Positions 3,520 to 61,285 of a stretch of DNA of 64,000 nucleotides are shown here, piece after piece. The notes below the pieces were generated by a model, which saw nothing but the letters and a program-made list of their open reading frames with translations, was not told the origin of the DNA and searched no databases. The stretch spans positions 13,516,001-13,580,000 of the forward strand of contig OX597822.1 in NCBI GenBank assembly GCA_951406725.2, in the 5' to 3' direction. The stretch is from Octopus vulgaris (lineage: Eukaryota). Made by a program: the position numbers and the translations under genes. The number at the start of each line of letters is the position of its first letter. The first letter of the stretch is position 1.

Positions 3520-4985
3520 GAGTATCGATTACTCAATGAAAATCATACCTATACCTTCCAGAGAACTATACTCTTAAAAAAATAATTGGAGAAAATGACG
3601 GATCTTATTAAACGTATGAGATGGAAGGTCTTCCATTACAACAATGAAGAGTCTATCGCAGAGAACATATACCATGAAATTAAATCCCTTCCAAAATCAA
3701 GGACTTGGGAGACTTCGAAACAGATCTACTCATACTTACAGACAAAATCAAATTTCGTAATTCCTTTAAAACTTTTCAATAGAAACTGAAAAAGACATTA
3801 AAAACATAAAAAATTTCAAAAGAACGGCACTTTCTTCTGATAAAACCAAGAACTTATACCTTGTAGACAACAGCCCTTACTCACAACTCCTACATAACAA
3901 TGTTATTAGTAATTACACTAAAGCTAGACTACAAGTTTATAACGACATTAATAAAGAAGCTAGTATCATCACCGCTAGGTTTAAATTAGATTTTTTTTAA
4001 ATATTGATCCTTCCAAAATAAAAAAAAGACCTTTATAACTATTAAGAACCATAAAGAGAACTTCCTATCTAATCCTAAATAAAGATTAATTAACCCTGCA
4101 AAATCAGAAATTGGTATAATTAGTCAGGAAATTTTATGAAAAATCAATGCTAAAGTTAGAGGGTCAAGTAATTTAGTACAATGGTCCCAAAGTTGTTTAA
4201 AACAATTAGAAATAAGAATAAAGCAAGATTTAAACAATTTAATATTGTAGATCTCTATGCATCTATTTCTAGAAAACTGCTAAATAAAGCCCTCACTTTC
4301 GCAAGCGATTTTACAGAGATTCGTGAACAAGATTAGGATATAATCCTCTATGCTAGAAAGACCTTACTCTTCAGCGAGAACACAGAGTGGGTCAAGACAG
4401 CAGAATCAGAAGGTTCTTTCGATGTGAGCATGGCGTCATATGATGGAACAGGCATACGCGATCTCATTGGGCTATTCCTGCTTGACACGTTAGGGAAAGC
4501 TTTTCCTGGTGTATATTTCGCTATTTATAGGGATGATGCTCTAGCTTTAGCTAAGAATACCATTGGACCAGCGCAAAATCCGTTAAGGAAGGGTGTTATC
4601 CGTCTTATGAAAACATTCGATCTAAGCATAACAAAAGATGCCAACCTGACGGTTGTCAATTTCCTTGACGTATTTCTAAATTTACAAAAGAATATTTACA
4701 AACCCTATAGAAAGCGCAACGATGGACTTAGTTATATTAATGTAGGTTCCTGCCACCCCATCCCCAGAGTGTTTAAGAATTAGTTAAGAATCTTAGAAGG
4801 AGAATTTATAGCCTCCCCTCCAATATAAACATATTTAATAATGTTGCCCCACTATATAACAATGCCCTTAAAGCTAATGGATTTGAAGAGGAAATAGCTT
4901 ATACACCTGCTATTAAGCCAGAAATAAAGAAACGAAAACATAGACACAGGAATATTATCTGGTTCACATCCCGTTACTCCTCGGA
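3520..4985 (+). mobile_element. Decayed Penelope-like element (PLE) reverse transcriptase
   Basis: motifs across frameshifts: DLIKRMRWK, DKTKNLY, HKENF.SNPK.RLINPAKSEIG, MASYDG, IYRDDAL (4526..4537 = YRDD), NFLDV, PYRK, S.HP, RNIIWF; stops before the GIY-YIG domain. Confidence 0.85.
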
Positions 4986-6141: not shown

Positions 6142-7370
6142 TACACGCAAACACAAATATACGCATAGATCCATATAAATCCAAACGCACACATACATAT
6201 ATACATAAGAACATACACACACATATATATATACATACATAGATACACTCAGTCATACATACACACAGACATATATATGTGTGTGTGTATGTTCGAATAT
6301 TTGTGTGTGTGTCTGCTTCAATATATCTATGTGTGTGTACGTACTTATATACATATCTATATATCTATATGTATATATGTATATATATATTTATATATAT
6401 ATATATCTATATATATATATATTTATTTATACACATACACACACATATATATATATATATGTACATATATATATATATATGTATACACTTATATGTATAC
6501 ATACATACATACATACATACATACATACATACGTAAATAGATACTTACACACACATATGCACAGATACAGAACCAGCATTTAGCGTAAAATAGAAATATC
6601 CCGCTCTCTCCTATTTCCATGTTTTACAGCAAAATAATAAAAAAAAAGCACTACATGATGTCTTACTCTGAACATATAATGTTTGGGGAGGGTCAAGAAG
6701 AGAGAACAGGATCAATGCTTAATGCTTAATCTGCTGGATATGTCCTGGTCAGATGTTCCCTTATACAAATGCCAGTCCGGAAGGCGATGGCGTTAGCAAA
6801 GTGGTACTGCGGCTGCGCTTGATTGTGTGTTTTTTTTCTTATTATTTTGAGTTGTACGTCATGTTATTCACTTGCAGGCGAAGTACGGACGGCTTGTGTG
6901 TATGTGTTTGTTTCTGTGTGTGTGTTTGTGTTTGTTTCTCAGTGTGTATGCGTTTGCATGTGTATTTGTGTGTATGCGTGTGCGCGCACGTGTGTATGCG
7001 TGTTTGTTCTTTTGTGTGTGTGTGAAAGGATGGTTGTATGTAGTCGTATATCTTATGAAAATGATGGAGTGTTTGTGAAAGTGTGTATCTGAGTAAATGC
7101 GTGCGTGAAGTGATAGCGCAGTGCACAAAACACCAACAGGACAACATTCACTTCTACCACTTCCGGTTCCCACCGACTCAACCGGCTCCGAAACTACCGC
7201 TAATAACCAATGACACCTCTACCACCAACACCAGCAACACCTGTACCGTCATCAACACCATCATCATTACAAAGACCAAGACTAATACATGTTTCTTTAC
7301 TACCCACAAGTGGCTAAACACAGAGAGAACAAACAAGGACAGACAAACGGATTAAGTCGATTACATCTGT

Positions 7371-7754
7371 ATTCTAGGATCAGATATGGCGATGGTATTT
7401 ATCTGTCCTTGTTTGTCCTCTCTGTGTTTAGCCCCTTGTGAGTAGTAAAGAAATAGGAAATAGGTGTTTCGTCAGCCGTTACATACTGAGTTCAAATTTC
7501 GCCGAGGTAGACTTTGCCTTTCATCCTTTCGGGGTCGATTAAATAAGTACCAGTTACGCACCAGTGCGAACCTGGTACTTATTTAATCGACCCCGAAAGG
7601 ATGAAAGGCAAAGTCTACCTCGGCGAAATTTGAACTCAGTATGTAACGGCTGACGAAACACCTATTTCCTATTTCTTTACTACTCACAAGGGGCTAAACA
7701 CAGAGAGGACAAACAAGGACAGACAAATACCATCGCCATATCTGATCCTAGAAT
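7371..7754. repeat. Near-perfect ~385-bp palindrome built from a SINE junction fragment plus unique flank
   Basis: attctaggatcagatatggcgatggta... mirrors ...taccatcgccatatctgatcctagaat; centre ~7562. Confidence 0.93.
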
Positions 7755-8391
7755 TAATAACACCACCTCTGCCACCTATACCACAGCTATCATCACCACC
7801 ACAGCCATCAACATCGTTATTTTAACACCTCTCCTACCTTCACCAACACAACTACCACCAAAACCATACTGGCATCACAAATACCAAACTTCTATCACCA
7901 ATATCACTACCACCACCAGTACTACCACCAGCATATCACTACAACTAAGACTAGTACCACCTGAATATGACTGCCAGCAACGCCATCACCACTGCAACTG
8001 CCACCCCCACCATTTTTTTGCATTCAGATATTCAATGTTAATGCTTTTCATTCGGCCGACGTGTTAATTCCCTCTGTATTTGATAAACTCCTATATACAT
8101 TTTCTCCAAACACATTTCTGTGGATGGACGCATTTCCCCCCTACACGTGTTTCTATTCCCATTTTTACTTCGGACAGCTTTTTCTATGCATATCGTCTAC
8201 ACCTAATGTTATTGTTGAATTTGAATTTAGTTTTTATTTCGATAAGCTTTATTTTCTCAGTGTGTTTGGGCCTTGTACTTTTGAGCTGTCTCGTTTCTCT
8301 ACCTAGCGCACGATTTCTAATCGCAGCCAACCTCTCCTTAAATACATTATTTACAATTTGACGGACATTTCTCTTCGTATTGTTTGTTGTT

Positions 8392-8437
8392 AACACAACA
8401 TTTCGGCTGATATACCATCCAGCCTTCATCAGGTGTC
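8392..8437 (-). ncRNA. Minimal type I hammerhead ribozyme motif
   Basis: minus: gacac CTGATGA a ggctgg atggtata tcagcc GAAA tg TT gtgtt. Confidence 0.72.
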
Positions 8438-8484
8438 TTGGGGAAATTTCGAACCTGGGTTCTCATTCCTGAGGTATTTGTCGA

Positions 8485-8561
<77 letters not shown>

Positions 8562-8688
8562 TCACTGCCTGGAATCGAACTCGGAATCTTGGGGTTAGTA
8601 GCCTACGCTCTTAACCACTATGCTATATAATTGTAATAACATCGAAAAATACCTTAGGACTCAGAACCCAGGTTCGAAATTTCCCCAA

Positions 8689-8734
8689 GACACCTGATGA
8701 AGGCTGGAGGGTATATCATCAGAAACGTTGTGTT
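8689..8734 (+). ncRNA. Minimal type I hammerhead ribozyme motif (helix II partly decayed)
   Basis: gacac CTGATGA aggctgg..tcatca GAAA cg TT gtgtt. Confidence 0.65.
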
Positions 8735-9546
8735 AACAACAACGATGAGGACAAATATCCGTCAAATGTAAATAATGTAAATAATGTACATAATTCCTCA
8801 TCTCTTAAATATAGAACTGTACTCTCCTTAAATGAATAGGCACTACATCTCATACACACACATACACACGCATCCCTCAATTTATGCTTCTATGTCGTGC
8901 GTGCTTTTCTTACCTTATGCTCTTTAGTTTTAACTTCTACAAATTTCACTCTCTTCTACGTTCTTCCAAATCAAAATTCCCTGTAATGAATTACTAAACT
9001 TATTTTCAACAGATTCATATAGTTTCTCATTTATTTTTCTGTAATACTCATTTAACAATGTAATAATTTCATTATCAATTTTTAGTTTCATTTCCATTTA
9101 AATTCTAATTTCTATCACTCGCAATATTTTTTTCTCCTTCTGATCAGGTCCTTCTGCCTCTCGATATCGTTTTTACGACGATAGATTCTTTATGCTATCC
9201 AGTTTTAAATTCCAGTTCCACTGACCCTCAATTTTTCCGTTATGGTCAACTGCTTTCAGCCAAGAGATTTTCGTTATTTAAAAAGCAAATGCCCTCCCCA
9301 CTCAATTTGAAATATTTATTCAATAAGTTTTGTTCATCTTTTGTTTTATCTTTCACTTGTTCAGTCATTAGACTGAGGCCATGCTGGAGTACTGCCTTGA
9401 AGCATTTTTTAGTCGAATGAATCAACACAAGTACTTTTTTTTAGTTTATGTTTGGTATTTATTATATCGGATCCTTGTACCGAACCGCTATGTTACAGAT
9501 ACCTAAACACGCCGACACACAAATATATATATATATATAAATATAT

Positions 9547-10052
9547 ATAGATGAATTTGTTAAAAAGGATACCAAACACCAAGGCAAGACTTCTCAAGTC
9601 ATAAATGTTATTATTATTAAAATTTATTAAGCAATTTTAAAGTCTTACAGCTGTTTCTGCGATATCGTATAAACATGTGGGATATCCCGTCATCGGAGAC
9701 AGATGGTGAGGAAGTGAAAGGGGATAGAGTAGAGAGACGATGGAGTGAAGCACTGGAGAAATAAAGGAACAGAAGCATGTAGAAAAAGAGAAAAAGGAAA
9801 AAAGAGAATAAAAGAGAAAAATCCTTTTTCCTTATTTTCTACATCTCTTTATTTCTTTATTTCTCCAGTGCTTTAGTCCATCGTTTTCGTAATCTATACC
9901 CTTTCACTTCCTCGCTATCTATCTCTGATGATGGGAAATTCCACATATTTTTGGGATATCCCAGAAACAGCTGTTAAGACTTTAAAATTGCTTAATAATC
10001 TTTAATAATAATAACCTTGGTATTTGTTATCCTTTTCAACAAATTTATATCT
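9547..10052. mobile_element. Diverged fold-back element with an HHR in each arm (9642..9700 minus; 9922..9979 plus)
   Basis: minus: gtct CCGATGA cgggatatc..gatatcgca GAAA CAGCTG TA agac; plus: tct CTGATGA tggga..tccca GAAA CAGCTG; arms inverted around ~9815; follows (TA)n. Confidence 0.82.
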
Positions 10053-10785
10053 GCTTTATCGGAAATCTACAATAGTTCCATAGTTCCATATGTCCCGTCT
10101 CAGTTACGAGCTTGGAACCCAGGTAATCTGTTACACCACTTACCCAGCATACCTATCCCTGTAAATCATTTGTGAACTAAACCCCCATAATTTATATTTG
10201 TTTAAATATATATATATATATATACACGACGGGCTTCTTTCGGTTTCCACACATAAAGCCTTGGTTGCCCAAGGCTCCTCGCAGTGGGACTGCAAACGGA
10301 TCCATGTATTTGGAAGCAAGCTTCTTACAACACAGCAACGCCTGCGTCTAGTAATCATGACAGAAATATATATCCATAGGGCATTGTATTATTCGTGAAA
10401 CTTTGAGTAACAATTTGTGAAGATTTTTCTGCATCAATGACATATTTTATATAACATCTGAATTTCGAATACAATTTTTTCCGCCTTGTTCTGCATCTAT
10501 TGTGCCCACTTGCAATATGTGTGTATGCGTGAGTGTCTACATGGATGTATATGTACGTGATGTGTGTGTGTTTGTATTTATCTAATTACGCGTGTATATA
10601 TGCATATGTATGTATATATGTGTGTATATCCTTTATTTGAGGGTGAACAAGGAAACTATAAGAAGGCATCTTCATGAGAAGGCATATTCACAATTGTTTA
10701 AATGTGCAGCCTGGAAGTATGGGTACCTATTTCCGAATCCCGTTCAATCTCGTGTAACCTCGTGTATTTTCACCCAAAAATAAGA

Positions 10786-10893: not shown

Positions 10894-11201
10894 TTGAAGA
10901 TCTCTTCGCATGAAATCATTGGTTACCTTGTTAATCCACAAATAATGAATATTTATCCACCAATGCAATTTTAAGCACTCGTTCTCTCTATTCGATTATT
11001 AGCGTCTGCATGAATATATATAATTCCAATAGAGTTAGTGGTTCTGAATCCAATCACCCAAGGGATAATATCTATCCAATATGCTGCTGGTAGAATACCC
11101 AAATATTAATACACAAGTATTTTTTCATTGCATGGCAATTACATTACTGAGTGTAATAAATGGGTGAGGGTAAAAAATTTTTTTACCCTTAATTTATACA
11201 G

Positions 11202-11591
11202 CAATAAGAAAAATGGAGGGGATCAATAGATGGTATTCATCAACTTTTAGACATTATATTATGTCTATTTATTTATCTAAAAAGACAATTATAACAATAT
11301 ACAAACATGTATAACATATTATGTTTTACATATAAAATATATAAAATATAAAATATAAAATATAAAAAATATAAAATACAAAATACCAGTAATTATTAAA
11401 ATATATATTACTAGTATTTATGAATTTATATTTTTTATATTTTATATTATATATATTATATATGTAAAGCATAATATCTTATACATGTTGTATATTGTTA
11501 TAACTGTCTTTTTAAAAAATAAATAGATAGACATAATATTCTAAAAGTGGATGAATAATACGACCTCTTGATTCCCTCCATTTTCTTATTG
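11202..11591. repeat. AT-rich ~390-bp imperfect fold-back
   Basis: caataagaaaaatggaggg... mirrors ...ccctccattttcttattg; centre ~11400; abuts (TA)n. Confidence 0.85.
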
Positions 11592-11630
<39 letters not shown>

Positions 11631-12354: not shown

Positions 12355-12997
12355 TATAATTAAGGGTACTAAGAAACAGTACCTACATTCTATTAGTACA
12401 AGGCTGACAGCAAGCAATGGAATAAAATAGATGTAATAAAATTTTGAAGTTAATTCCAGATCGTTCCATTTTTGGTTTAGTAATGCAAACTGCTTTATCT
12501 TCAGCAGAAGAACATACCAGAAGTACGTAAATATAAATATATATAATACACATACATATTCATTCGTAGATATACAAATATATGCATACATCTGCACTTA
12601 TATACGAGGCGAATCCGATTATTCATCTCAACCACGTGCTTATTACATCAAGATAATACCACAGTAAATATCAGGATCGGAGATGAATAATCGGATTTGA
12701 CTCGTATATAGGTGTAGATGCATGCATATATTTGTATATGTGCGGATGTATTTGTATGGGTATGTATATATATTTATACTTGTGTACTTCTGGTATATCT
12801 TATTGATGACAGTAATTTGTATTCCTAAACTAGAAATTGCACGATCTAGAATTGACTTCGAAATTTTACTAAATCTCTTTTATTCATTTACTCGCTTTCA
12901 GCCTTTTGCTAATGGAGTGCAATTTGAAGTGGTGTTTTAGAGTTTTTGACGTCTATCTCTAGCGTGTAAGTACTGTTTCTCAATACCCTTAATTATA
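12355..12997. repeat. Old ~640-bp fold-back element with degenerate HHR-like cores
   Basis: tataattaagggta.../...acccttaattata ends; inner tatacgag..atccgattattcatctc mirrored at ~12680..12710; CTGAAGA on minus ~12498..12504. Confidence 0.8.
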
Positions 12998-14054: not shown

Positions 14055-14265
14055 ATTACGGAGATGTACTCGCATAGCAAGTAATTTGATCTGAGATCGT
14101 GTGCTGAAACGAAAACAATTGCAGCGTGGAAGGTGTTTATAAGCCATTTAAGAAACACACAAAAGCCGTTCGATTCACTTCAACATTTAAGTTTAATTTG
14201 TCAAAATATTTTCGTCGCTAAAATCCGCGACCTGTTCACTGACAAAGTCCGTGCTGCATCTCTCT
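14055..14265 (-). mobile_element. (TA)n-flanked element carrying a G3-C8 variant hammerhead at 14197..14246
   Basis: minus: tttgtca GTGAACA g gtcgc ggatttta gcgac GAAA atat TT tgacaaa; second copy at 50616..50841. Confidence 0.75.
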
Positions 14266-14925: not shown

Positions 14926-14947
14926 TGTGTATATATATATATATATA

Positions 14948-15177
14948 TCAACATCACAATCAAGAACGGCATAATAGGCCATTCACCCACTAGAAATAAC
15001 AGCCAAAGCTTTAACGCAAAATAACATTAATTCGTAAACCAGGAGAAAATTAAAAAAACATTTACCCTGTTTTTTTAATTTTCTCCTGGTTTCGAATATG
15101 TTATTTTGCGGTTAAAGCTTTGGCTGTTATTTCTAGTGGGTGAATATATTATGGCCGTTCCTTGATTGTGATGTTGA
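14948..15177. repeat. ~230-bp fold-back
   Basis: tcaacatcacaatcaagaacggc... mirrors ...gccgttccttgattgtgatgttga; centre ~15065. Confidence 0.88.
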
Positions 15178-15270
15178 ACCTATAAATGGTCTATGACTAT
15201 TTAATTTTTTCCCACTAGGCCGCTGGTGGCAAAAAAATTCTACAAAATCTTTTTTGCCACCCTATATTGA

Positions 15271-15328
<58 letters not shown>

Positions 15329-15335
<7 letters not shown>

Positions 15336-15560
15336 AATATTTCGGAATGGTCACTTTGCCAGTTTAGCCAATAAAAACAAACGCACTATATATTTGATGT
15401 TACTTATTTTTTACATTAATCTTAATCTTATTTCGGCCAGAGTTCTTTCGTCACACTCCTGTGTAAAAATAACACTGAAGCAAAGTAACACCAAATATAT
15501 AGTTCGTGTGTTTTTATTGGCTAAACTGGCAAAATGACCATTCCGAAATATAACAATATA
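15329..15560. repeat. ~230-bp fold-back with the 3' half of an HHR-like motif in the spacer
   Basis: ttcggaatggtcactttgccagtttagccaataaaaac mirrored; spacer on minus reads cac aggagt gtg ac GAAA g aa c TC tggccg. Confidence 0.8.
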
Positions 15561-15612
15561 TGTTTCAACACACGACTTCACATAAAAAATCTTGCACAAC
15601 AAATATATAAAC

Positions 15613-15851: not shown

Positions 15852-17485
15852 CTAGTTTCAGCTCACAAGCTGTGGCCATGCTGGGGCACCACCATTTGGT
15901 GTTGCTACATGATTTTACTTCACGAATGCTTTTTAGCAACTGCCATTTGGTGCACGAGAGAGTTCGATGCAGCTGCCCTCATCTGCACCTCCTGCCGTGA
16001 AGTTGGTTCATCTGGGACACCTGTCAAGAAGAGATCCAGTTTTATTTTAAAGACATCTGCATCCACCCCATGCAGGTCTCTTAGGTTCTTTGGGAGGATA
16101 TTGAAGAGCTGTGGGCCTCGGAAGCCCAGGCTATCGCAGTATCTCGTCCTACATCTTGATGGCAAATTTGGAGTCCTTGGCACTATGCAATGGCGCCCAG
16201 TTCTGGCATTTGTGTAACTCTCGATGCCAAAGTTTGGGACAAGTTCTTCTAGGATCTTCCAGATGTATATTATGGCATATCTTTCTCGCCTACGCTCTAA
16301 GGAATAGAGTCTTAATCTCTTGAGTCTTTCCCAGTAGCTTATATGCTGCACAGAGGCTAACTTCTTCGAGTAGCTTCGTTGGATCGCCTCAAGTTCTGTG
16401 ATTAACTTGACACTGGATGGTGACCATAGCTGAGAGCAATAGTCAAAGTGGCTTAGGACAAGTGTCCTCCAGAGGACCATCATGGTTTCCTGGTCTCTTG
16501 TTCTAAAGGTTCTAAGAATCCATCCGGTCAGTCGTCTACATTTCATTGCCAATTTAGCAACATGCACATGAAAGGTTGCATCATCACTCATGTAAATACC
16601 CAGGTCACGCACTGATTGTGCCTCTGGGATTGCAATCCCTCCAGGTCCAGTGTATTTATTGGGTATTGCATTTAGTTTTGCATGCTGATAGCATAAAGCT
16701 TGAAACTTTTCAGCACTGAACTGCATGCTATTCTTTTCAGCCCACTTGTATATTTTGTCCATCTCACATTGCAGGTGCTTAGTGTCTTCAGGGTTCTGTA
16801 TTGCCTGTGAAACTTTTGTATCATATGCATAACTTGTGATCGTGGCTCTCTGCGTGGCTGAGGGCATGTCTGAGAGGGCCATTATGAACAGTAGTGGTCC
16901 CAAAACAGTGCCCTGCGGAACACCGCTCACTATTTGCGTGTTAATAGAAGTGGCCCCATTGGCTACTACCACCTGACTTCTATCCTTCAGAAAGTCATGA
17001 AGCCATTCTCCCAATGTTCCAACTATGCCAAGATCACGCAGATTGTGACATATCATTCCATGATCAACTTTATCAAAGGCCTTTGCAAAGTCGAGATATA
17101 TCACTTCCACATTTGAGTGGTTGAGCAGTCGTTTCAGCACCCAGTAATAGTGTTGTAGGAGCTGAGTTAAGCCGCTTCTTCCTGGTCGGAAACCATTTTG
17201 GGTGTCAGGCGGCAAGTCATTTTCTTCAAGGAAGGACATTCGTTCCATGGCCTTGCTGATGTGTGATGTCAGAGAGATAGGTCTGTAGTTCTTGGCCTCC
17301 GCTCTGCTACCTTCGTTATGAATGGGGCATATTTTACCTTCCTTCAGTTGTCTTGGAAGTTTGCCAGTAACAAGGAAGCTCTGAAAGAGGAACTGCAGTG
17401 GTCTTGCTAGGACTATCTTACATACTTTTAGAAGGATTGCTGGGAATCCATCGGGGCCAGTAGCTGAGTTTGTTTTCATTTCATC
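15852..17485 (-). mobile_element. 5'-truncated CR1-group LINE: RT domain, C-terminus and 3' UTR
   Basis: ORF 15920..17479: GPDG, NYRPISLTS, QNGFRPGRS, YLDFAKAFDKVDH, SGVPQGTVLGPLLF, YAYD (catalytic YADD mutated), RDLG, SLERRR; short 3' UTR with stem-loop. Confidence 0.95.
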
Positions 17486-17628
17486 TATATGTATGTATAT
17501 ATTCCTTTACTTTCTTTTATTTTCTTACTTGTTGCAATTATTTGACTGCGGCCATGCTGGAGCACCGCCTTTAGTCGAGCAAATCGCCCCCAGGCGATGT
17601 TGGGAGACAGACAGGCACACACACACGC

Positions 17629-22895: not shown

Positions 22896-23700
22896 AAAAA
22901 TACATATATTCTCATGTTTCGAATTTATTTTCTTGTTTGCATCACCAAACACACACTCACACAAACATAGGCACTTACATAAATACACATACACACACAT
23001 AAACAGACATGCATACATACATATGAGTGTAAACCATAAAAATTAGGAGATATGAGAAGTGAATATGTTTATTTAACCATTTGTCATCCATAGAATTACA
23101 GCCGATTCGCAGTTTTCTTCCTGTAATAACTCCTTTCTAACATAAGTTCAAGACCTGGAATTTTAGGGGAGGGGGCTTATCGATGACAGCAACCCCAGTA
23201 ATTGACTGGTACTTAATTTATTGTCCCCGAAAATACGAAAAAGAAAGTCGACCTCGGTGGAATTTGAACTCAGAGCGTATTTTCCTCATGTAACAATAAT
23301 TTCGATACACCACAGTTGCTTGCAACTCATTATGCTATTGTACATTTACAAATCAGTGTCGTCATTGAAAGGCTAAAACAATTAAAAGGCGCATGTGAAC
23401 AGATATGTGTAACAATATCTGGTAGTGGTCGGTCACGTGACCACAAGTTATACCACGAACAATGTTAAGATTAGTTATAGGTGTTTGAAAGCTAAGTTAT
23501 CAGATCACTAGAATATCATGGATACATCAATGCTTCAATCTGTAATATCCACATGATTCTAGGAATCCATATATAACGCCAAAAATATATGTGTACGTAT
23601 ACGTTTCGCCTGAAAATCGCAGTGGCGTGACAATCGATGCGTTAAATAAACACTCGGTATCACTTCCAATAAAAGCGATGTTTGTATATATATATATATA

Positions 23701-23896
23701 CACCATGTTGGACCGTTAGCTCCTACACGCATTTTTTTTCTCCTTGTTTCTTATCTGTGTATCTTTCTGTCGAAGAGCGTAGGCTCGAAACGTAAAAGAT
23801 TTGTTTTATTTCTATTCCTGAGCGCCATACTAATACAATTGTTTGTTTGTACTCCACCTGCCTTCGTCTTTTGTTTATCTTCGTAAACCTTCCCGT

Positions 23897-26385: not shown

Positions 26386-26929
26386 TATTGAGCGGTCTTG
26401 TTTTATGCTTAAAGTACAACGGTGACACACACACACAGTGGTTGAAAGATTCCATGTAAGTATAGATTCTAAACATGCATAATTATTACATTGATAGTGA
26501 CTTCGATGTTTGTGACTTACTGATATACATACATGTATATTTGTAATTCTCTAATTTTATCTGGAATTTAATTTGTTTCAGTCAATTGACTGTGGCCATG
26601 CTGGAGCACTGCCTTTACTCGAGCAAATCTACCCCAGGATATATTCTTTGTAAGCCTAGTACTTATGCCTTCGGTCACTCTTGCCGAACCGCTAAGTGAC
26701 GGGGACATAAACACACCAGCATCGGTTGTCAAGCGATGCTAGGGAGACAAACACAGACACACAAACATATACATATATATATATATATACCCTACACACA
26801 TATTTGATTATGAAGATTTACAAACATACTTTCTCAGTGAAACTCAGTATACCCACCATTATAGATAATACCAAATGTACATTTTCGGATTTTTCATAAT
26901 TTCATAATGTGATGGCATTGCAATTGCAT

Positions 26930-27021
26930 GCGGCTGAAGAGAGCTTTAAACCATCTGTTATGTCGATTGCACATTGATGTAAGAATAGGTTGTTGTATAA
27001 AGCTTGAAACACGTGTACCGC
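26930..27021 (+). ncRNA. Canonical-core minimal type I hammerhead ribozyme
   Basis: gcgg CTGAAGA gagcttta [49-nt loop] taaagctt GAAA CACGTG TA ccgc; predicted cleavage after GUA (27017). Confidence 0.88.
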
Positions 27022-27132
27022 GACATCTTTTTGTATTCTGTTTTTTATTTCATTTTATACATATATATGTATGTATACATATATATATAGAGAGAGAGAT
27101 ATAAATATACATACATATGTGGTTATAGATAA

Positions 27133-27177
<45 letters not shown>

Positions 27178-27324
27178 TACATGCGTATATATATATATAT
27201 ATATATATAATTAATTATCTATAACCACATATGTATGTATATTTATATCTCTCTCTCTATATATATATGTATACATACATATATATGTATAAAATGAAAT
27301 AAAAAACAGAATACAAAAGATGTC

Positions 27325-27416
27325 GCGGTACACGTGTTTCAAGCTTTATACAACAACCTATTCTTACATCAATGTGCAATCGACATAACAGATGGTTTAA
27401 AGCTCTCTTCAGCCGC
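27325..27416 (-). ncRNA. Mirror copy of the hammerhead ribozyme
   Basis: reverse complement of 26930..27021. Confidence 0.85.
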
Positions 27417-27925
27417 ATGCAATTGCAATGCCATCACATTATGAAATTATGAAAAATCCGAAAATGTACATTTGGTATTATCTATAATGGTGGGTATACT
27501 GAGTTTCACTGAGAAAGTATGTTTGTAAATCTTCATAATCAAATATGTGTGTAGGGTACCATTGGACTTCAGAAATCCGTCCATACTCTATCATCAGTCA
27601 ACATAGAACATATATACATATACATATATGTATATGTATATATATATATAAATAAATATATATATATATATATACATATTCATATATATATATATGTATA
27701 TATGTATATATATACTGTCCGAAGTCTGGACGCCATGATAGATCGTTAGCTCCTACACGCATTTTTTTCTCTCCTTGTTTCTTTTCTGTGTATCTTTCTG
27801 TCGAAGAACGTAGGCTCGAAACGTAAAAGACTTTTTCTATTTCTATTCCTGAGCGCTATACTAATACATTTGTTTGTTTGTACTCCACCTGCCTTCGTCT
27901 TTTGTTTATTTTCGTATATATAGGG

Positions 27926-28487
27926 GAGCGAACGGTCAGAGAATTAAACAATTAAAAACACACCATTAAAGATTATGTCATTCGGATATTCATATTCCAT
28001 GGTTTCGAGTTCTAGCCCACGAGTCTCAATCTTCATCAGCATGAGTCACCGGTGAAAAATTGTAAATCCGTCACGTTGAACATCCATCAACGTTCTGACT
28101 TGTTTAGCGCCAAAACTAGCCTGCTTCGGTGCAAATATATTTATGGGTAACATTCGAATGTAAACACTCGAAGAAAGATATTATCATTGTTAATATTATC
28201 TCTGGTGAAAATATGTAATTGATAACAATAACAATGATAATGTAGGTGGTTCCGGGTTTTTAGATGGCATTATATAACTATACATTAAAATGAAAAATTC
28301 CTACTAAGCTTAAGGACGCTCAAGGCATCAACCTGTTTAGAGATAGGAGTCAAAATCGCAAATCCACCACTGAAATCATCGAGATGTGACAAAGAGCGAA
28401 CGGTTAGAGAATTAAACAATTAAAAACACACATTAAAGATTATGTCATTCGGATATTCATCTACCATGGTTTCGAGTTCTGGCCCGC
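27926..28487 (-). mobile_element. Partial-tandem (~470-bp period) HHR element, PLE pLTR/retrozyme-like
   Basis: ~92-bp direct repeats at 27926..28018 and ~28394..28485; minus HHR 27991..28043 catg CTGATGA a ga..tc GAAA CCATGG aa tatg; second copy retains GAAA CCATGG TA. Confidence 0.75.
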
Positions 28488-32225: not shown

Positions 32226-32385
<160 letters not shown>

Positions 32386-32464
32386 CCTGAGCGCCATACT
32401 AATACAATTGTTTGTTTGTTTCCCACCTGCCTTCGTCTTTTGTCTAATTTCATAAAGCTTCCCG

Positions 32465-32502
<38 letters not shown>

Positions 32503-38122: not shown

Positions 38123-38345
38123 TGTATGTATGTATGTATGTATGTGTGTGTATATGTTTGTGTGTCTGTGTTTGTCCCCCCAATATCGCTTGACAACCGA
38201 TGCTGGTATGTTTACGTCCCCGAAACCTACCAGTTCGGCAAAAGAGACCGATAAAATAAGTACTAGGCTTACAAAGAATAAGTTCTGGGGTCGATTTGCT
38301 CGACTAAAGGCGGTGCTCCACATGACTGAAACAAGTAAAAGAGAA
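37888..38345 (+). mobile_element. Full-length tRNA-derived SINE with internal microsatellite (same family as 24031)
   Basis: head ggcgtaagagtggctgtgtgg, caccttaggcaagtgtcttc core, tail gactgaaacaagtaaaagag. Confidence 0.88.
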
Positions 38346-42566: not shown

Positions 42567-43572
42567 TTACCTCTCCTCGAGTAACTTCGTAGTTTCTTCC
42601 GAGATTCTTCCCTTCTTTTCTCTTCGACATACTCCCTTAGCCTTCCTTAAACACTCCTTCAGTTTCCCTATCAGTGAGTTGTAGTCATCTTCTTTGTCGT
42701 CTCCTTGGCACCAGTTTTCCTGCATGATGGCTTCCTGCAGCTTCGCCTCGTTGTAGACTCGGACACGTTTTCCCTTCGACGCCAAATACAGCGCCATCTT
42801 CTCCCTCTTCCCGTCGATGACGATCCTCGCCCTCACCAGACGATGATCGTTGCCGGTGTTGAATGGCGTCACGACGGAGACGTCATGTAATATGCGTCGC
42901 TTATCAACCAGGATGTAGTCGATCTCGCTTCGGTGCTTAGAGTTCGGCGATATCCAGGTCCATCTCTTCCTCTCCCTCTTCCTTTCCCTCTTCCTGAATA
43001 GGCTGTTTCCGATGTAGAGCCGCCTCGCCTCTATCATGGTAGCCAAACGTTTTCCTCTCTCGTTTCTCTCTCCCATGCCGAATCTCCCGACGTACTCATC
43101 TTCTTCTCGTCCATGTCCAACCTTTGCCTTGAAGTCTCCCATCACGACAGTGTAAGTGGATTTCATAGCCAGCCCTTTGCCTAGCTGTCGATAGAATTCT
43201 TCCACCTCGTCGTCGTCGCTGGCACTTGTGGGAGCATAGGTCTGGACAATCTTGAGGGTGGCCTTCCCTGAGAGGTTCAGATTTAGTACACCAATCCGTG
43301 ATGATATGAAGTGGCAAGAAGCGACCCTCGAAGTCCATTCCTTACTTACGATCAATCCGATACCTCCGACCGATCTAGCACCTTCTGCTCTCCCTAATCC
43401 CACAGTGCATCCATCTTGCCATCATATACTCGCTTTCTTCTTCCAGCATGTCTCGCACAGCCCTAACACGTCGCACCTGATCTTCTTCCTCTCCTCCATT
43501 AGGTGGTTCAGTTCTTGCCACCCTGCCAAGGACCTGCAGTTGTAGGTGCATATGGCAAGGTTAGTCCTGTTA
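42567..43572 (-). mobile_element. RTE-clade LINE N-terminal apurinic-like endonuclease domain, 3'-truncated
   Basis: [68 protein letters not shown]. Confidence 0.92.
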
Positions 43573-46534: not shown

Positions 46535-46929
46535 CTTTTCTACTCTAGGCAGAAGGCCCGAAATTTTGGGGGAGAGGCCAGTCGATTATATCGACTCCAG
46601 TACGCAACTGGTACGTAATTTATTGACCTCGAAAGAATGAAAGGCAAAGTCGACCACAGCGGAATTTGAACTCAGAACGTAAAGACAGGCGAAATGCTAT
46701 TTCTTTACAGCCCACAAGGGGCTACACACAGAGAGGACAAACAAGGACAGACAAACGGATTAAGTCGATTATATCGACCCAGTGCGTAACTGGTACATAA
46801 TTTATCGACCCCGAAAGGATGAAAGGCAAAGTCGACGTCGGCGGAATTTGAACTCAGAACGTAAAGGCAGACGAAATACGGCAACGTATTTCGCCCGGCA
46901 TGCTAACGTTTCTGCCAGCTTGACCTCTT
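46535..46929 (-). mobile_element. Dimeric SINE with 17-bp TSD
   Basis: same architecture as 21817; TSD agaattatt(a/g)gaatatt at 46518..46534 and 46930..46946. Confidence 0.9.
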
Positions 46930-49270: not shown

Positions 49271-50615
49271 TTGGCAGGATAAATATATTGTGAAAATAAG
49301 GATGAAAGAGAAAAAAGGAAGGAAGGGTTCATTAATTTGTCCCAAATACTGCATTTAAATTTAATATGGTGAGAACGATGACAGAGACGAAGAGTGGAGT
49401 GTGAGGAAGCGAGTCACTAAGATTGCTTTTGTTGGTGGACGGGCCACGGAACTCTGCAAAGTTCTTGGCATTTGTATATGTTCTGTCATAAAATTCTACA
49501 GAGGATTAGTGGCTGTGACGACGTCCTCGAGGAAATTATGGGCATCAACAGGGATCAACTAGCTGCTGTATGTATGTATGTATGTATGTATGTATGTATG
49601 TATGTATGTATGTATGTATGTATGTATGTATGTATGTATGCATGCATGTATGTATGTATGTATGTATGTATGTATGTATGTATGTATGTATGTATGTATC
49701 TATCTATCTATCTATATATATATATATCTATCTATCTATATATATATATATATATATACAGAGAGAGAGAGATATAAATATATTGATACATATATATAGA
49801 GAGAGATAGACAGAAAGGTAGATGCATACTTATATATATGAGAGAGATAGACAGAAAGGTAGATGCATACTTACATATATGTACATGTATATAAATATAT
49901 ATATATACATACAAGCATAAATACATATATCCTGTTTTCTGACAGGATATAAACTTTAGGCGTCGGTAACATTTTTCTAAAATTTTTCCCGAATAAATGT
50001 ATCGGATTCAGCGTGAAAAATGACGTCAATATATCAAATTTGAAAATTTACACTTAATTGTAAATTTTCAAAATCTCTGACAACATCGAAAAAGATGTCT
50101 ATCTATTTCATTTTCGGCTTTTCTTGTGGTAAAATTCCCCCTCTATATATATGTGCTTGTTTGCCAGTGTGTTTATGTAAACATGTGTGTAAGGAATTTC
50201 CTGATGGCGAGAGAGTATTTGAAGAAACAGGTATGTAAAAAATAATTTAGTTTGCTAGCATATTTTTCTGTAAGTAAATATATCTTTTCTTATACACAGC
50301 TCTCTCTCTCACACACACACACGGATTTGGTCAATGCGGAGTGGGTACTAAAAATCTAAATTCCAAATTTTTTGTTGTTGCTTACATCACAGCAATGGAC
50401 CACCGCATCACCATTCCATAGAACGTGTTTACGGGGAGAAAAATATCGACAAGCATAAACACATGTCAGAGTGACAAAGAAACAAGGAAGGAACAGGTGG
50501 TCACGGGATTTGCTAGAAACAACAGCTAAACATCCCTTAAATCACACACCTTTTCGTACAAAAACCAAATAGCAAATTTCGTAAGTACGCGAAGGCATTT
50601 TAATGTGAAAATGCC

Positions 50616-50841
50616 TTAGATTCACTTCAACATTTAAATTTAACTTGCCAAAATATTTTCGTCGCTTTGAGACCGCGATCTGACAAAATTCTGAGATGCA
50701 GCACAGAATTTTGTCAGTGAACAGGTCGCGGTCTCAAAGCGACGAAAATATTTTGGCAAATTTAATTTAAATGTTCAAGTGAATCTAACGGTCTTTGTAT
50801 GTTTTTAAATGGGTTATAAACACATTCCACGCTGCAATTGA
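50616..50841 (+). mobile_element. Fold-back copy of the G3-C8 hammerhead element (HHR 50711..50759)
   Basis: ttgtca GTGAACA g gtcgc ggtctcaaa gcgac GAAA atat TT tggcaa; inverted left arm 50616..50692 lacks the core heptamer. Confidence 0.78.
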
Positions 50842-50925: not shown

Positions 50926-51709
50926 AGAATTCATGACAAAAACAAAAAACGAAGACAGGTGGTGTAGACAACAAACAGATGTATTAGTATAACGCTCACG
51001 AATAGAAAAGGTCTTTAAAGTTTCGAGCCTACGCTCTTCCACAGAAAGGAACACAGAAAGAAACAAGGAGAGAAAAAATATGTGTGTAGTGGCTACCGAT
51101 CTATCATATATATATGTATGCCAACTGGCAAGACATTATAGCCTTATAAGATTTTTTCAGCAACGCATATTGTACTAAGATGGTAAAATTTTTAAGTGAT
51201 CAATAAATTTATTTCTAAATACACGCGCACGCGCGCATATCAGCGTATATGTGTATGTATACGTTTGCGTTTCTCGATAGTGTCCTGATGAATGTTGTAC
51301 CCCTGAAAATTACAGAGTCGTTGCGCAATACACCACACTCCTCAGGGATGTAAACTCTGAATACACACCCGATATAACTCTGTTATCATCGCCCGTGAAA
51401 GTTCCAATTTAGAATGGCGCCAAACAAGAATCCGTCATATCTCCAAAGCTTCTTAATGCATGTCTAGATATGGTCATCAGCAACATTTACTGGACGATCT
51501 TCCCAATTCTTTGCTTTATCGATAATTGTTATAGAATTTATATACTCACGGAGAGTGTTTTTGTCTATCAGTTAACCAAAGTATTTTTTCGATTCAGTTT
51601 ATTTTATATGCAAGACCGTACCATAGGTCTCACGTGTATTTATTTATAATGAACGACGTTTCTCTGAGGTACTATTTCTTCAGGCATAATGATTTATCAT
51701 AATCGCTGT

Positions 51710-59515: not shown

Positions 59516-59648
59516 CTGTTATTTAACCATCCTCTCACACCGTCTCCGATGAAGGGATATAATAGATATCCTGGAAACAGCTGTAAGACCTTCTATCTAT
59601 AAATGTTCTAAAATCTACATAACCTTGGTGTTTTTTATCTCATTACAA
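59512..59648 (+). mobile_element. (TA)n-embedded short element with minimal HHR at 59542..59589
   Basis: gtct CCGATGA a gggatat aatag atatcct g GAAA CAGCTG TA agac; shares taaccttggt with the 9547 family. Confidence 0.82.
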
Positions 59649-59662
59649 TATATATATATATA

Positions 59663-60720
59663 CTAGCTGGTGTACCCGAGGGTAAAGATGTTTATTTAAA
59701 CGCCTTATTACTCTGATATAAAAAGGAATTTCGTTATTTAACTGCCACAAAATGTGTATCTTCCGACGTGAAAACATACAAAAAACTGTCGTCTGGAGGA
59801 GGGAGAGATTGTTGGAGGCTGGAGAGATTGTTGGAGGAGGGAGAGACTGTTGGAGGCTGGAGATAGAGGTTTTCGGAGGTTGGCGAGAAAAGTTTTCGAA
59901 GTCTGTCGAGAGAGGCTGTCGGAGGGAGAGCCATCTTTGTTCCAGTCTTGCAGGGTTTTGCCGTTGAGTGCATAGATGAAGAAAGTTTCCGGATTTCGAA
60001 CGTTAGAGCATCTGCCATAGAGCTGTCCATGAGAAAAAGCCGGATTGGGACACACCTATTAAATACGATCTGGAATCAAAAATTTCTACTATCATCGAAA
60101 AGGTTTAACTGGAAAAATGCAGAATTATCGGAGTTATGAGCATTCAAAGTGTAATCAAATTTAATTGAAAACCCTGCATGCATTGCCAGCACTTAGTTAT
60201 TTGAAGATGTTGGAAAAATGTCTATTAATGCAATGTCTAAATTAATTACAGCAATATGCATATAACTGTTTAGATATTGAAATAGAATAGACGAAGAATA
60301 ATTGTATGTCAAATATAATGAATCGGAGACTAACTTGAGATCGCTGTTGTCGCATTAGAGCTGCTTGTGAAGTATAAGTACCCACTCGTACTCTTACACG
60401 TCGTGGCATTTTAAAGGTTAACTTTATCAAGGCTAATATATTGAATCTAATATATAAATGTATATGCGCAAAAAGTATGTAAGTATATAAATGTATGAAT
60501 GAAGTTTTTAAGGTTTAAGATTCAAATCATGAAACTGCAATAATAAGGTTTAGCAGTTAAAAACTGTGAGTAGTGAAATGCAGAATTAGGTCCGCTGATC
60601 GTGAGAATCAAATATTGATCGCTTCGCTAAAAACTGACAATTGTCACTGCAGGATCTATGAGTTATTTCCCTTGGGTGCTTAAATAATATATATTAATTA
60701 TATGTAGTAGATATAAGGAT
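59663..60720 (-). mobile_element. Helitron deletion derivative with Pif1-like helicase C-terminal remnant
   Basis: minus 3' end ...cgggtacaccagCTAG-t; ORF 59738..60055 contains FSHGQLY.RCS.V..P..F.IY..NGKT (RepHel motif VI region); 5' end a-TCCTTATAT at ~60720; internal ~20-bp minisatellite 59795..59860. Confidence 0.78.
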
Positions 60721-61285
60721 CCCAATTACTATCATCGAAAAGGTTTAACTGGAAAAATGCAGAATTATCGGAGTTATGAGCATTCAAAGTGTAATCAAAT
60801 TTAATTGAAAACCCTGCATGTATTGCCAGCATTTAGTTATTTGGAGATGTTGAAAAATTGTCTATTAATGCAATGTCTAAATTAATTACAGCAATATGCA
60901 TATAACTGTTTAGATATTGAAGTAGAATAGACGAAGAATAATTGTATGTCAAATATAATGAATCGGAGACTAACTTGAGATCGCTGTTGTCGCATTAGAG
61001 CTGCTTGTGAAGTATAAGTACCCACTCGTACTCTTACACGTCGTGGCATTTTAAAGGTTAACTTTATCAAGGCTAATATATTGAAGCTAATATATAAATG
61101 TATATGCGCAAAAAGTATGTAAGTATATAAATGTATGAATGAAGTTTTTAAGGTTTAAGATTCAAATCATGAAACTGCAATAATAAGGTTTAGCAGTTAA
61201 AAACTGTGAGTAGTGAAATGCAGAATTAGGTCCGCTGATCGTGAGAATCAAATATTGATCGCTTCGCTAAAAACTGACAATTGTA
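60087..61285. repeat. ~560-bp near-identical direct duplication (60087..60643 / 60727..61284)
   Basis: tactatcatcgaaaaggtttaactgg...aaaactgacaattgt repeated with only a handful of substitutions. Confidence 0.95.

Follow-up and report, generated by a model that had tools for sequence, protein, structure and literature searches.

A near-perfect tail-to-tail palindrome of a hammerhead-bearing, putatively Penelope-like remnant, probably formed by local inverted duplication at a TA microsatellite

The window analyzed here, a 64,000-nucleotide stretch of Octopus vulgaris DNA, is AT-rich and free of Ns, with a high density of microsatellites and dispersed repeats. A search of bacterial and archaeal genome contigs returned no match that would indicate prokaryotic origin or contamination. 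Self-alignment of the window placed the outer ends of an inverted repeat exactly at positions 26788 and 27558, outward of which the match stops at once. The left arm (26788-27161, plus strand, 374 nt) and the right arm (27186-27558, minus strand, 373 nt) share 373 of 374 positions, in exact runs of 244 nt and then 130 nt with a one-base offset between them, and runs of this length are beyond chance expectation. The sole difference lies in a homopolymer, T5 (27028-27032) against A4 (27315-27318). An asymmetric 24-nt core (27162-27185) separates the arms, and the centre as a whole (27138-27209) is composed of (TA)17, 14 nt of interrupted repeat and (TA)12. An earlier note on this DNA had described a 770-bp perfect palindrome around (TA)n with identical arms; its ends and TA-based centre agreed with our alignment, and microsatellite-like DNA is indeed mirrored in both arms, but the one-base T-run difference and the asymmetric core make the palindrome near-perfect rather than perfect.

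The left arm starts with TA, which could be a 2-nt microhomology or a target duplication, and TA is present at both outer ends of the palindrome. A longer target-site duplication was also considered, but the flanks are pure TA and thus uninformative. Within the left arm, a T-rich tail followed by approximately 80 nt of microsatellite-like DNA (27023-27137, plus strand), mirrored in the right arm, may be element tail or host flank. On the left, the palindrome is preceded by the 5' half of a SINE-like dispersed repeat with its microsatellite next to it (26567-26766, plus strand), of which seven other partial copies in the window are 74-86% identical. The left part of the TA-rich microsatellite of this element (26767-26787) forms the outer junction of the left arm and shows the same 14-nt entry motif as an intact copy at 38162 (minus strand). 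On the right, 51 nt of unique DNA (27559-27609, minus strand), which may be host DNA or a further stretch at the 5' end of the element, lies between the right arm and the next TA-rich microsatellite (27610-27714). The label SINE, as used here for two repeat families of the window, is our assumption.

Two hammerhead motifs were observed, with cores at 26934 (plus) and 27412 (minus), each reading towards the centre, and thus the tail-to-tail arrangement given in the earlier note was confirmed. The left motif (26929-27022, plus strand) is of type I, with a 5-bp helix I (26929-26933/27018-27022), a core at 26934-26940, an 8-bp helix II (26941-26948/26998-27005) that carries a 49-nt insert, a GAAA box (27006-27009), and a 2-bp helix III with a palindromic tetraloop within an 8-nt palindrome (27009-27016). 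Cleavage would occur after 27017, at the GUA triplet (27015-27017) already named as the site. The mirror motif (27324-27417, minus strand) is identical in sequence, and in both motifs the core boxes, the three helices and the NUH site are present, helix III as a dimer only. A strict hammerhead pattern, whose thresholds were derived from the observed motif itself, matched twice in the window and in none of 200 shuffled windows. The core-to-GAAA distance is 65 nt, that is, the 8-bp helix II plus 49 nt, in agreement with the length proposed for a helix-II loop; however, this insert is predicted to lengthen helix II as an irregular hairpin (z -2.74 for the 65-nt piece, 3 of 200 shuffles equally stable), while the 49-nt insert alone folded no better than shuffles (26/200).

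The motif departs from the textbook, canonical hammerhead that had been claimed, both in its 2-bp palindromic helix III and in a G.U at position 10.1-11.1, which is found in both arms with no extra base after position 9 in that register and for which a C-to-T change at a CpG is our guess. Rfam likewise returned no match over the window at the gathering score, and with E values up to 10 the region 26700-27950 gave 67 matches, all below gathering and mostly TA-driven miRNA models, with no hammerhead among them; the length of the helix II insert may account for this. As a monomer, helix III has a predicted pairing probability of 0.00-0.02, and the self-duplex of the 8-nt palindrome with a second copy was computed at 8 bp and -10.3 kcal/mol. 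These predictions point to the dimer-dependent kind of hammerhead described in Penelope-like elements (PLEs); even without masking, a single motif of this kind would hardly cleave on its own. When the whole 771-nt RNA was folded, 762 of 771 nt were paired, with 381 pairs from arm to arm and the hammerhead helices at probability 0.0, whereas in a single arm folded alone the probability of helix I was only 0.05. The folding supports the earlier suggestion that a read-through duplex masks the ribozyme: if the locus were read through, the RNA would form a duplex of approximately 370 bp without a hammerhead fold, and because each such RNA would hold one sense and one antisense copy, the dimer could not form in cis. 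If transcribed, this duplex RNA would be a likely substrate for Dicer or ADAR.

We addressed the identity of the duplicated unit through its coding content and its resemblance to known elements. No open reading frame of at least 100 aa was detected over the arms, and the 39-aa and 45-aa open frames of the arm had no Pfam match. The 39-aa frame was tried as a coding remnant and rejected: among 1.84 billion proteins it gave only two weak hits, both unrelated, one of them repetitive and the other a C2H2 zinc-finger protein. Over the arms there is no frame for a telomerase-like reverse transcriptase with a GIY-YIG endonuclease; thus, the unit cannot be filed as an autonomous PLE. It shares with PLEs the type I hammerhead with a short palindromic helix III, a helix II within the 7-8 bp range and a helix I within the 4-5 bp range, as well as the junction of its tail with AT-rich or microsatellite target DNA. 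The G10.1-C11.1 pair with an extra base after position 9 was not seen in the motif, the arms are tail-to-tail rather than forming a partial tandem or a head-to-head inverted pseudo-LTR, and the locus holds only two opposed copies instead of the head-to-tail tandem units of a retrozyme. Judged from these sequence features, the hammerhead unit resembles a PLE terminal-repeat remnant, and its PLE membership is a candidate assignment. Apart from the two arms, no copy of this hammerhead family was found within the 64-kb window, to which all family comparisons were confined. Elsewhere in the window, a broken PLE-type reverse transcriptase remnant was observed at 3600-4970 (plus strand), one relative of which (712 aa) is 38% identical; its motifs suggest a Naiad-like element. 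It was rejected as a parent of the arms, showing no DNA similarity to the arm and an uninformative Pfam scan, and was not linked to them. Frames at 15920-17506, 42567-43421 and 456-1007 (all minus strand) presumably encode LINE-like reverse transcriptase and endonuclease, as assumed from their translations.

The flanks bear on the direction of the duplication. In the intact SINE-like copy at 38.1k, a 14-nt motif enters the microsatellite and a 9-nt motif exits the TA tract; at the palindrome locus, the former precedes the left arm and the latter lies in the centre. Of the 116 ends of long TA tracts in the window, only 3 carry the exit motif, and the entry motif occurs three times, although both are of low complexity and were picked after the fact. 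Without the left arm between them, the left flank and the centre would read as a single SINE-like microsatellite, which suggests that a formerly continuous tract received the left arm as an insertion, making this arm the putative new inverted copy and the right arm the putative original. For the 51-nt extension, kinship to a neighbouring hammerhead-like family was considered and dropped, since the extension itself did not match (with three gap settings, its score was reached by 544, 1029 and 1431 of 2000 shuffles), and with this failed test the right arm is not demonstrable as the longer original. A motif just inside the arm, compared with the three copies of that family, was equalled in 1 of 1000 shuffles for one copy, and in 34 and 25 of 1000 for the others.

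Nine aligned pairs of inverted arms, including 26788-27558, were obtained from three scans, none of which found all nine, and the list may be incomplete. One pair (7371-7754) served as a hammerhead-free control: it is built from another dispersed, SINE-like repeat, its arms are identical at 188 of 191 positions and its geometry is the same. In an intact copy of the repeat, the counterparts of its left flank (7292-7367, corresponding to 46700-46775) and of its right arm (7561-7661, corresponding to 46779-46879) follow one another, whereas at 7.4k the inverted arm, which carries approximately 27-30 nt of host flank from outside the repeat, separates the two; the turn falls at a short inverted repeat of the element, and no hammerhead half-site was found there. 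By its sequence, this palindrome is a local inverted copy of the same geometry made without a PLE, and since the same type of event affected a hammerhead-free repeat, the ribozyme at 26788-27558 would be a passenger. Three pairs carry hammerhead-like cores arranged head-to-head, at 8.3k (8338-8784, 141/158 identical), 9.6k (9521-10077, 211/250) and 50.6k (50609-50796, 80/85); these recover the cases previously placed at 8.3k, 9.5k and 50.6k, with cores judged by eye that a relaxed hammerhead scan did not flag. Palindromes with no recognisable hammerhead are located at 11.2k (11192-11601, 173/192, 6-nt spacer), 12.6k (12386-12919, 198/239, 50-nt spacer), which also mirrors microsatellite-like DNA, and 15.0k (14937-15187, 113/117 with seven gaps and four mismatches, 7-nt spacer). 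At approximately 83-97% identity over aligned positions, these three may be old fold-backs or MITEs. The ninth pair, at 15.4k (15327-15561, 74/79, 77-nt spacer), ends in TA tracts and holds a possible degenerate hammerhead, head-to-head.

Further hammerhead-like repeats were noted in the window. The copies at 50609-50796 and 14113-14262 belong to a repeat family with a hammerhead-like fold in which G3 and C8 look swapped by eye relative to the consensus in both. Another family, with a variant core, is represented at 27715-27916, 23700-23885, 32384-32465 and 50940-51107; its tails hit TA tracts 89-101 nt past the presumed site, and one copy is shorter by approximately 12 nt, which recalls the optional tail of PLEs. 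Two more hammerhead-like families comprise 8338-8784, 9521-10077 and 59535-59670, and the 9.6k and 59.5k copies share the helix III design of 26788-27558, a 6-nt palindrome ahead of the site. A near-tandem direct duplication is also present (60087-60644 and 60727-61284), identical at 551 of 558 positions with seven mismatches and no gaps.

We regard 26788-27558 as a real and probably recent event in which a hammerhead remnant of PLE type was duplicated in inverted orientation at a TA microsatellite; the earlier note called it very recent, which is likely but short of proof, as template switching and assembly polishing could each homogenise the arms. We propose that it most probably originated as a local template-switch (fold-back) inverted duplication at TA tracts. 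The starting point would have been a truncated, non-coding PLE terminal-repeat remnant with a dimer-type hammerhead on the minus strand, its tail already within the microsatellite of the SINE-like element. During replication or repair, the nascent strand would have switched template at the self-complementary TA tracts, copied approximately 350-370 nt of adjacent DNA in reverse and returned to the original template at a TA dinucleotide, an event that would belong to the four-point template switches of type 1-4-3-2. The left arm would thereby have been placed inside the TA tract, leaving a tail-to-tail palindrome in which the ribozyme is carried along. Consistent with this, the insert is the reverse complement of the adjacent DNA at 373 of 374 positions, and both switch points lie within TA sequence. 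The motif fit between left flank and centre adds moderate support, the motifs being of low complexity, and the 7.4k control is stronger. Fold-back copying primed in (TA)n, as suggested in the earlier note, is accordingly the best-supported origin, although that reading overlooked the dimer-dependent PLE type of the motif, the hammerhead-free event at 7.4k and the published alternative of PLE self-priming. In excerpts of PMC5453318, type 1-4-3-2 events yield inverted repeats and make up 31% of high-confidence human-chimp events, and inter-strand is preferred over intra-strand (fold-back) switching; the two are indistinguishable from the sequence of 26788-27558. Against a template switch stands the absence of the 3' half of the SINE-like element downstream of the palindrome, for which the model offers no explanation. 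Given the TA at either end and the failed test of the 51-nt extension, the palindrome may also have been inserted as a complete blunt hairpin that duplicated a TA.

It is doubtful that the palindrome is instead a fresh product of a PLE enzyme, by either of two routes. In one of them, the main rival of template switching but itself rather unlikely, a PLE reverse transcriptase acting on a sense read-through transcript would have primed itself from the UA-rich 3' end and copied as far as the 5' end of the RNA, and the complete hairpin would then have been integrated at a TA site. Tail-to-tail arms are the outcome predicted for a sense template in the available passages of PMC3846280, TA at both outer ends is as expected for a 2-bp target duplication, and the 51-nt extension has no significant kinship to related elements; yet the centre and the left flank fit as one microsatellite, the same geometry arose at 7.4k without any PLE, and the other three hammerhead-like pairs (8.3k, 9.6k and 50.6k) are head-to-head. 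The G.U shared by both arms at a conserved position would also fit the copying of a decayed genomic copy. In the other route, which we consider quite improbable, two target-primed insertions of one young PLE family, one per strand of the self-complementary TA target and in one event or successively, would have produced the arms, the microsatellite-like 80 nt being element tail. According to portions of PMC11167929, a PLE protein, studied in purified form and modelled as a dimer, cuts AT-rich DNA on both strands, extends both and can target its own terminal repeat, but reverse transcription begins inside the element, which would leave host flank uncopied. The tail lengths cut both ways: other hammerhead-like copies reach TA tracts 62-101 nt past the cleavage site and the last unique base here lies approximately 120 nt past it, whereas TA-rich DNA begins only 43 nt past it. 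Four nicks around the 70-nt core would be required, and the absence of a third family copy in 64 kb argues against two independent insertions.

A sequencing or assembly artefact, in the form of a fold-back read, an amplification chimera or a microsatellite misjoin, is less likely than a real locus, and we regard it as unlikely. The arms are nearly identical with both junctions in TA repeats, and their single difference is a homopolymer indel typical of long-read error; this difference could itself stem from sequencing and does not count against an artefact. The seven gaps against four mismatches of the 15.0k palindrome hint at unpolished errors in palindromes, and fold-back reads make up approximately 0.55-0.6% of nanopore genomic reads in excerpts of PMC12870357. 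However, as described there, such reads turn once near the middle, while to produce the present locus a read would have to turn and then rejoin colinear unique DNA. Palindromes built alike but decayed occur within the window, and those at 11.2k and 12.6k, without a hammerhead half-site, are too decayed to be read artefacts; the 60.1k/60.7k duplication, with its mismatches and no gaps, argues that indel error is not general. A MITE-like fold-back DNA transposon that had inserted at TA, the arms being its very long terminal inverted repeats, is a very improbable origin of the palindrome: TA at both ends and the short palindromes at 11.2k, 12.6k and 15.0k would agree with it, but the unit carries a retroelement-type ribozyme, its centre continues the flanking microsatellite and it is present as a single copy in the window.

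On the template-switch reading, the locus is one more palindrome produced by a known kind of mutation and has little weight by itself. If it were a PLE-enzyme product, it would provide genomic evidence on which strand PLEs copy and on the cause of their inverted insertions. Such insertions would have a built-in off-switch, a hairpin RNA in which neither ribozyme is exposed and from which small RNAs that silence the family could arise. Two aspects nevertheless give the locus some value. Tail-to-tail arms of PLE type are the trace expected of sense-strand self-priming and bear on an unsettled question of how PLEs retrotranspose. In addition, the nine pairs of inverted arms, which differ in age and all lie within 64 kb, suggest that long hairpins arise often in this TA-rich genome, a possible steady source of double-stranded RNA.

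Metazoan PLE pseudo-LTRs carry type I hammerheads with a helix II of 7-8 bp, a helix I of 4-5 bp and a palindromic, dimer-dependent helix III, of low activity in vitro and mostly preserved as solitary remnants, according to the portions available of Cervera and de la Pena (2014; PMC4209133), and the passages of PMC6765202 on stem III agree with a palindromic, dimer-needing description. The motif reported here resembles these in its 8-bp helix II, 5-bp helix I and minimal palindromic helix III, and its cores lie approximately 480 bp apart, with hammerhead pairs on opposite strands 100-700 bp apart already reported from Schistosoma (PMC4209133); it differs from the hammerheads described there in having G.U for G10.1-C11.1, no extra base after position 9, a 49-nt helix II extension, no open reading frame and a tail-to-tail orientation. 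Near-identical inverted arms, a palindromic junction and a TA-microsatellite context are shared with the inverted PLE pseudo-LTRs in excerpts of PMC3846280 and PMC8557442; however, those are mostly head-to-head with tails outward. A tail-to-tail arrangement appears in the passages of PMC3846280 only as the expected product of sense-strand self-priming, the tail-to-tail mentions in PMC9977147 and PMC12477816 refer to other elements, and no described genomic case of sense-strand self-priming or two-strand PLE priming was found among the excerpts returned by a literature search. Like the animal non-LTR retrozymes in the available text of bioRxiv 10.64898/2026.07.22.740005, the unit is short, non-coding and PLE-related, with a type I hammerhead; retrozymes, however, are head-to-tail tandems whose same-sense ribozymes can pair, whereas the opposed copies here would mask each other. 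With the type 1-4-3-2 switches outlined in parts of PMC5453318 and PMC10710096, the locus shares a one-step reverse-complement copy, a strand return and a near-perfect hairpin, although the tracts given there are tens of bases long and the arms here extend over approximately 370 nt.
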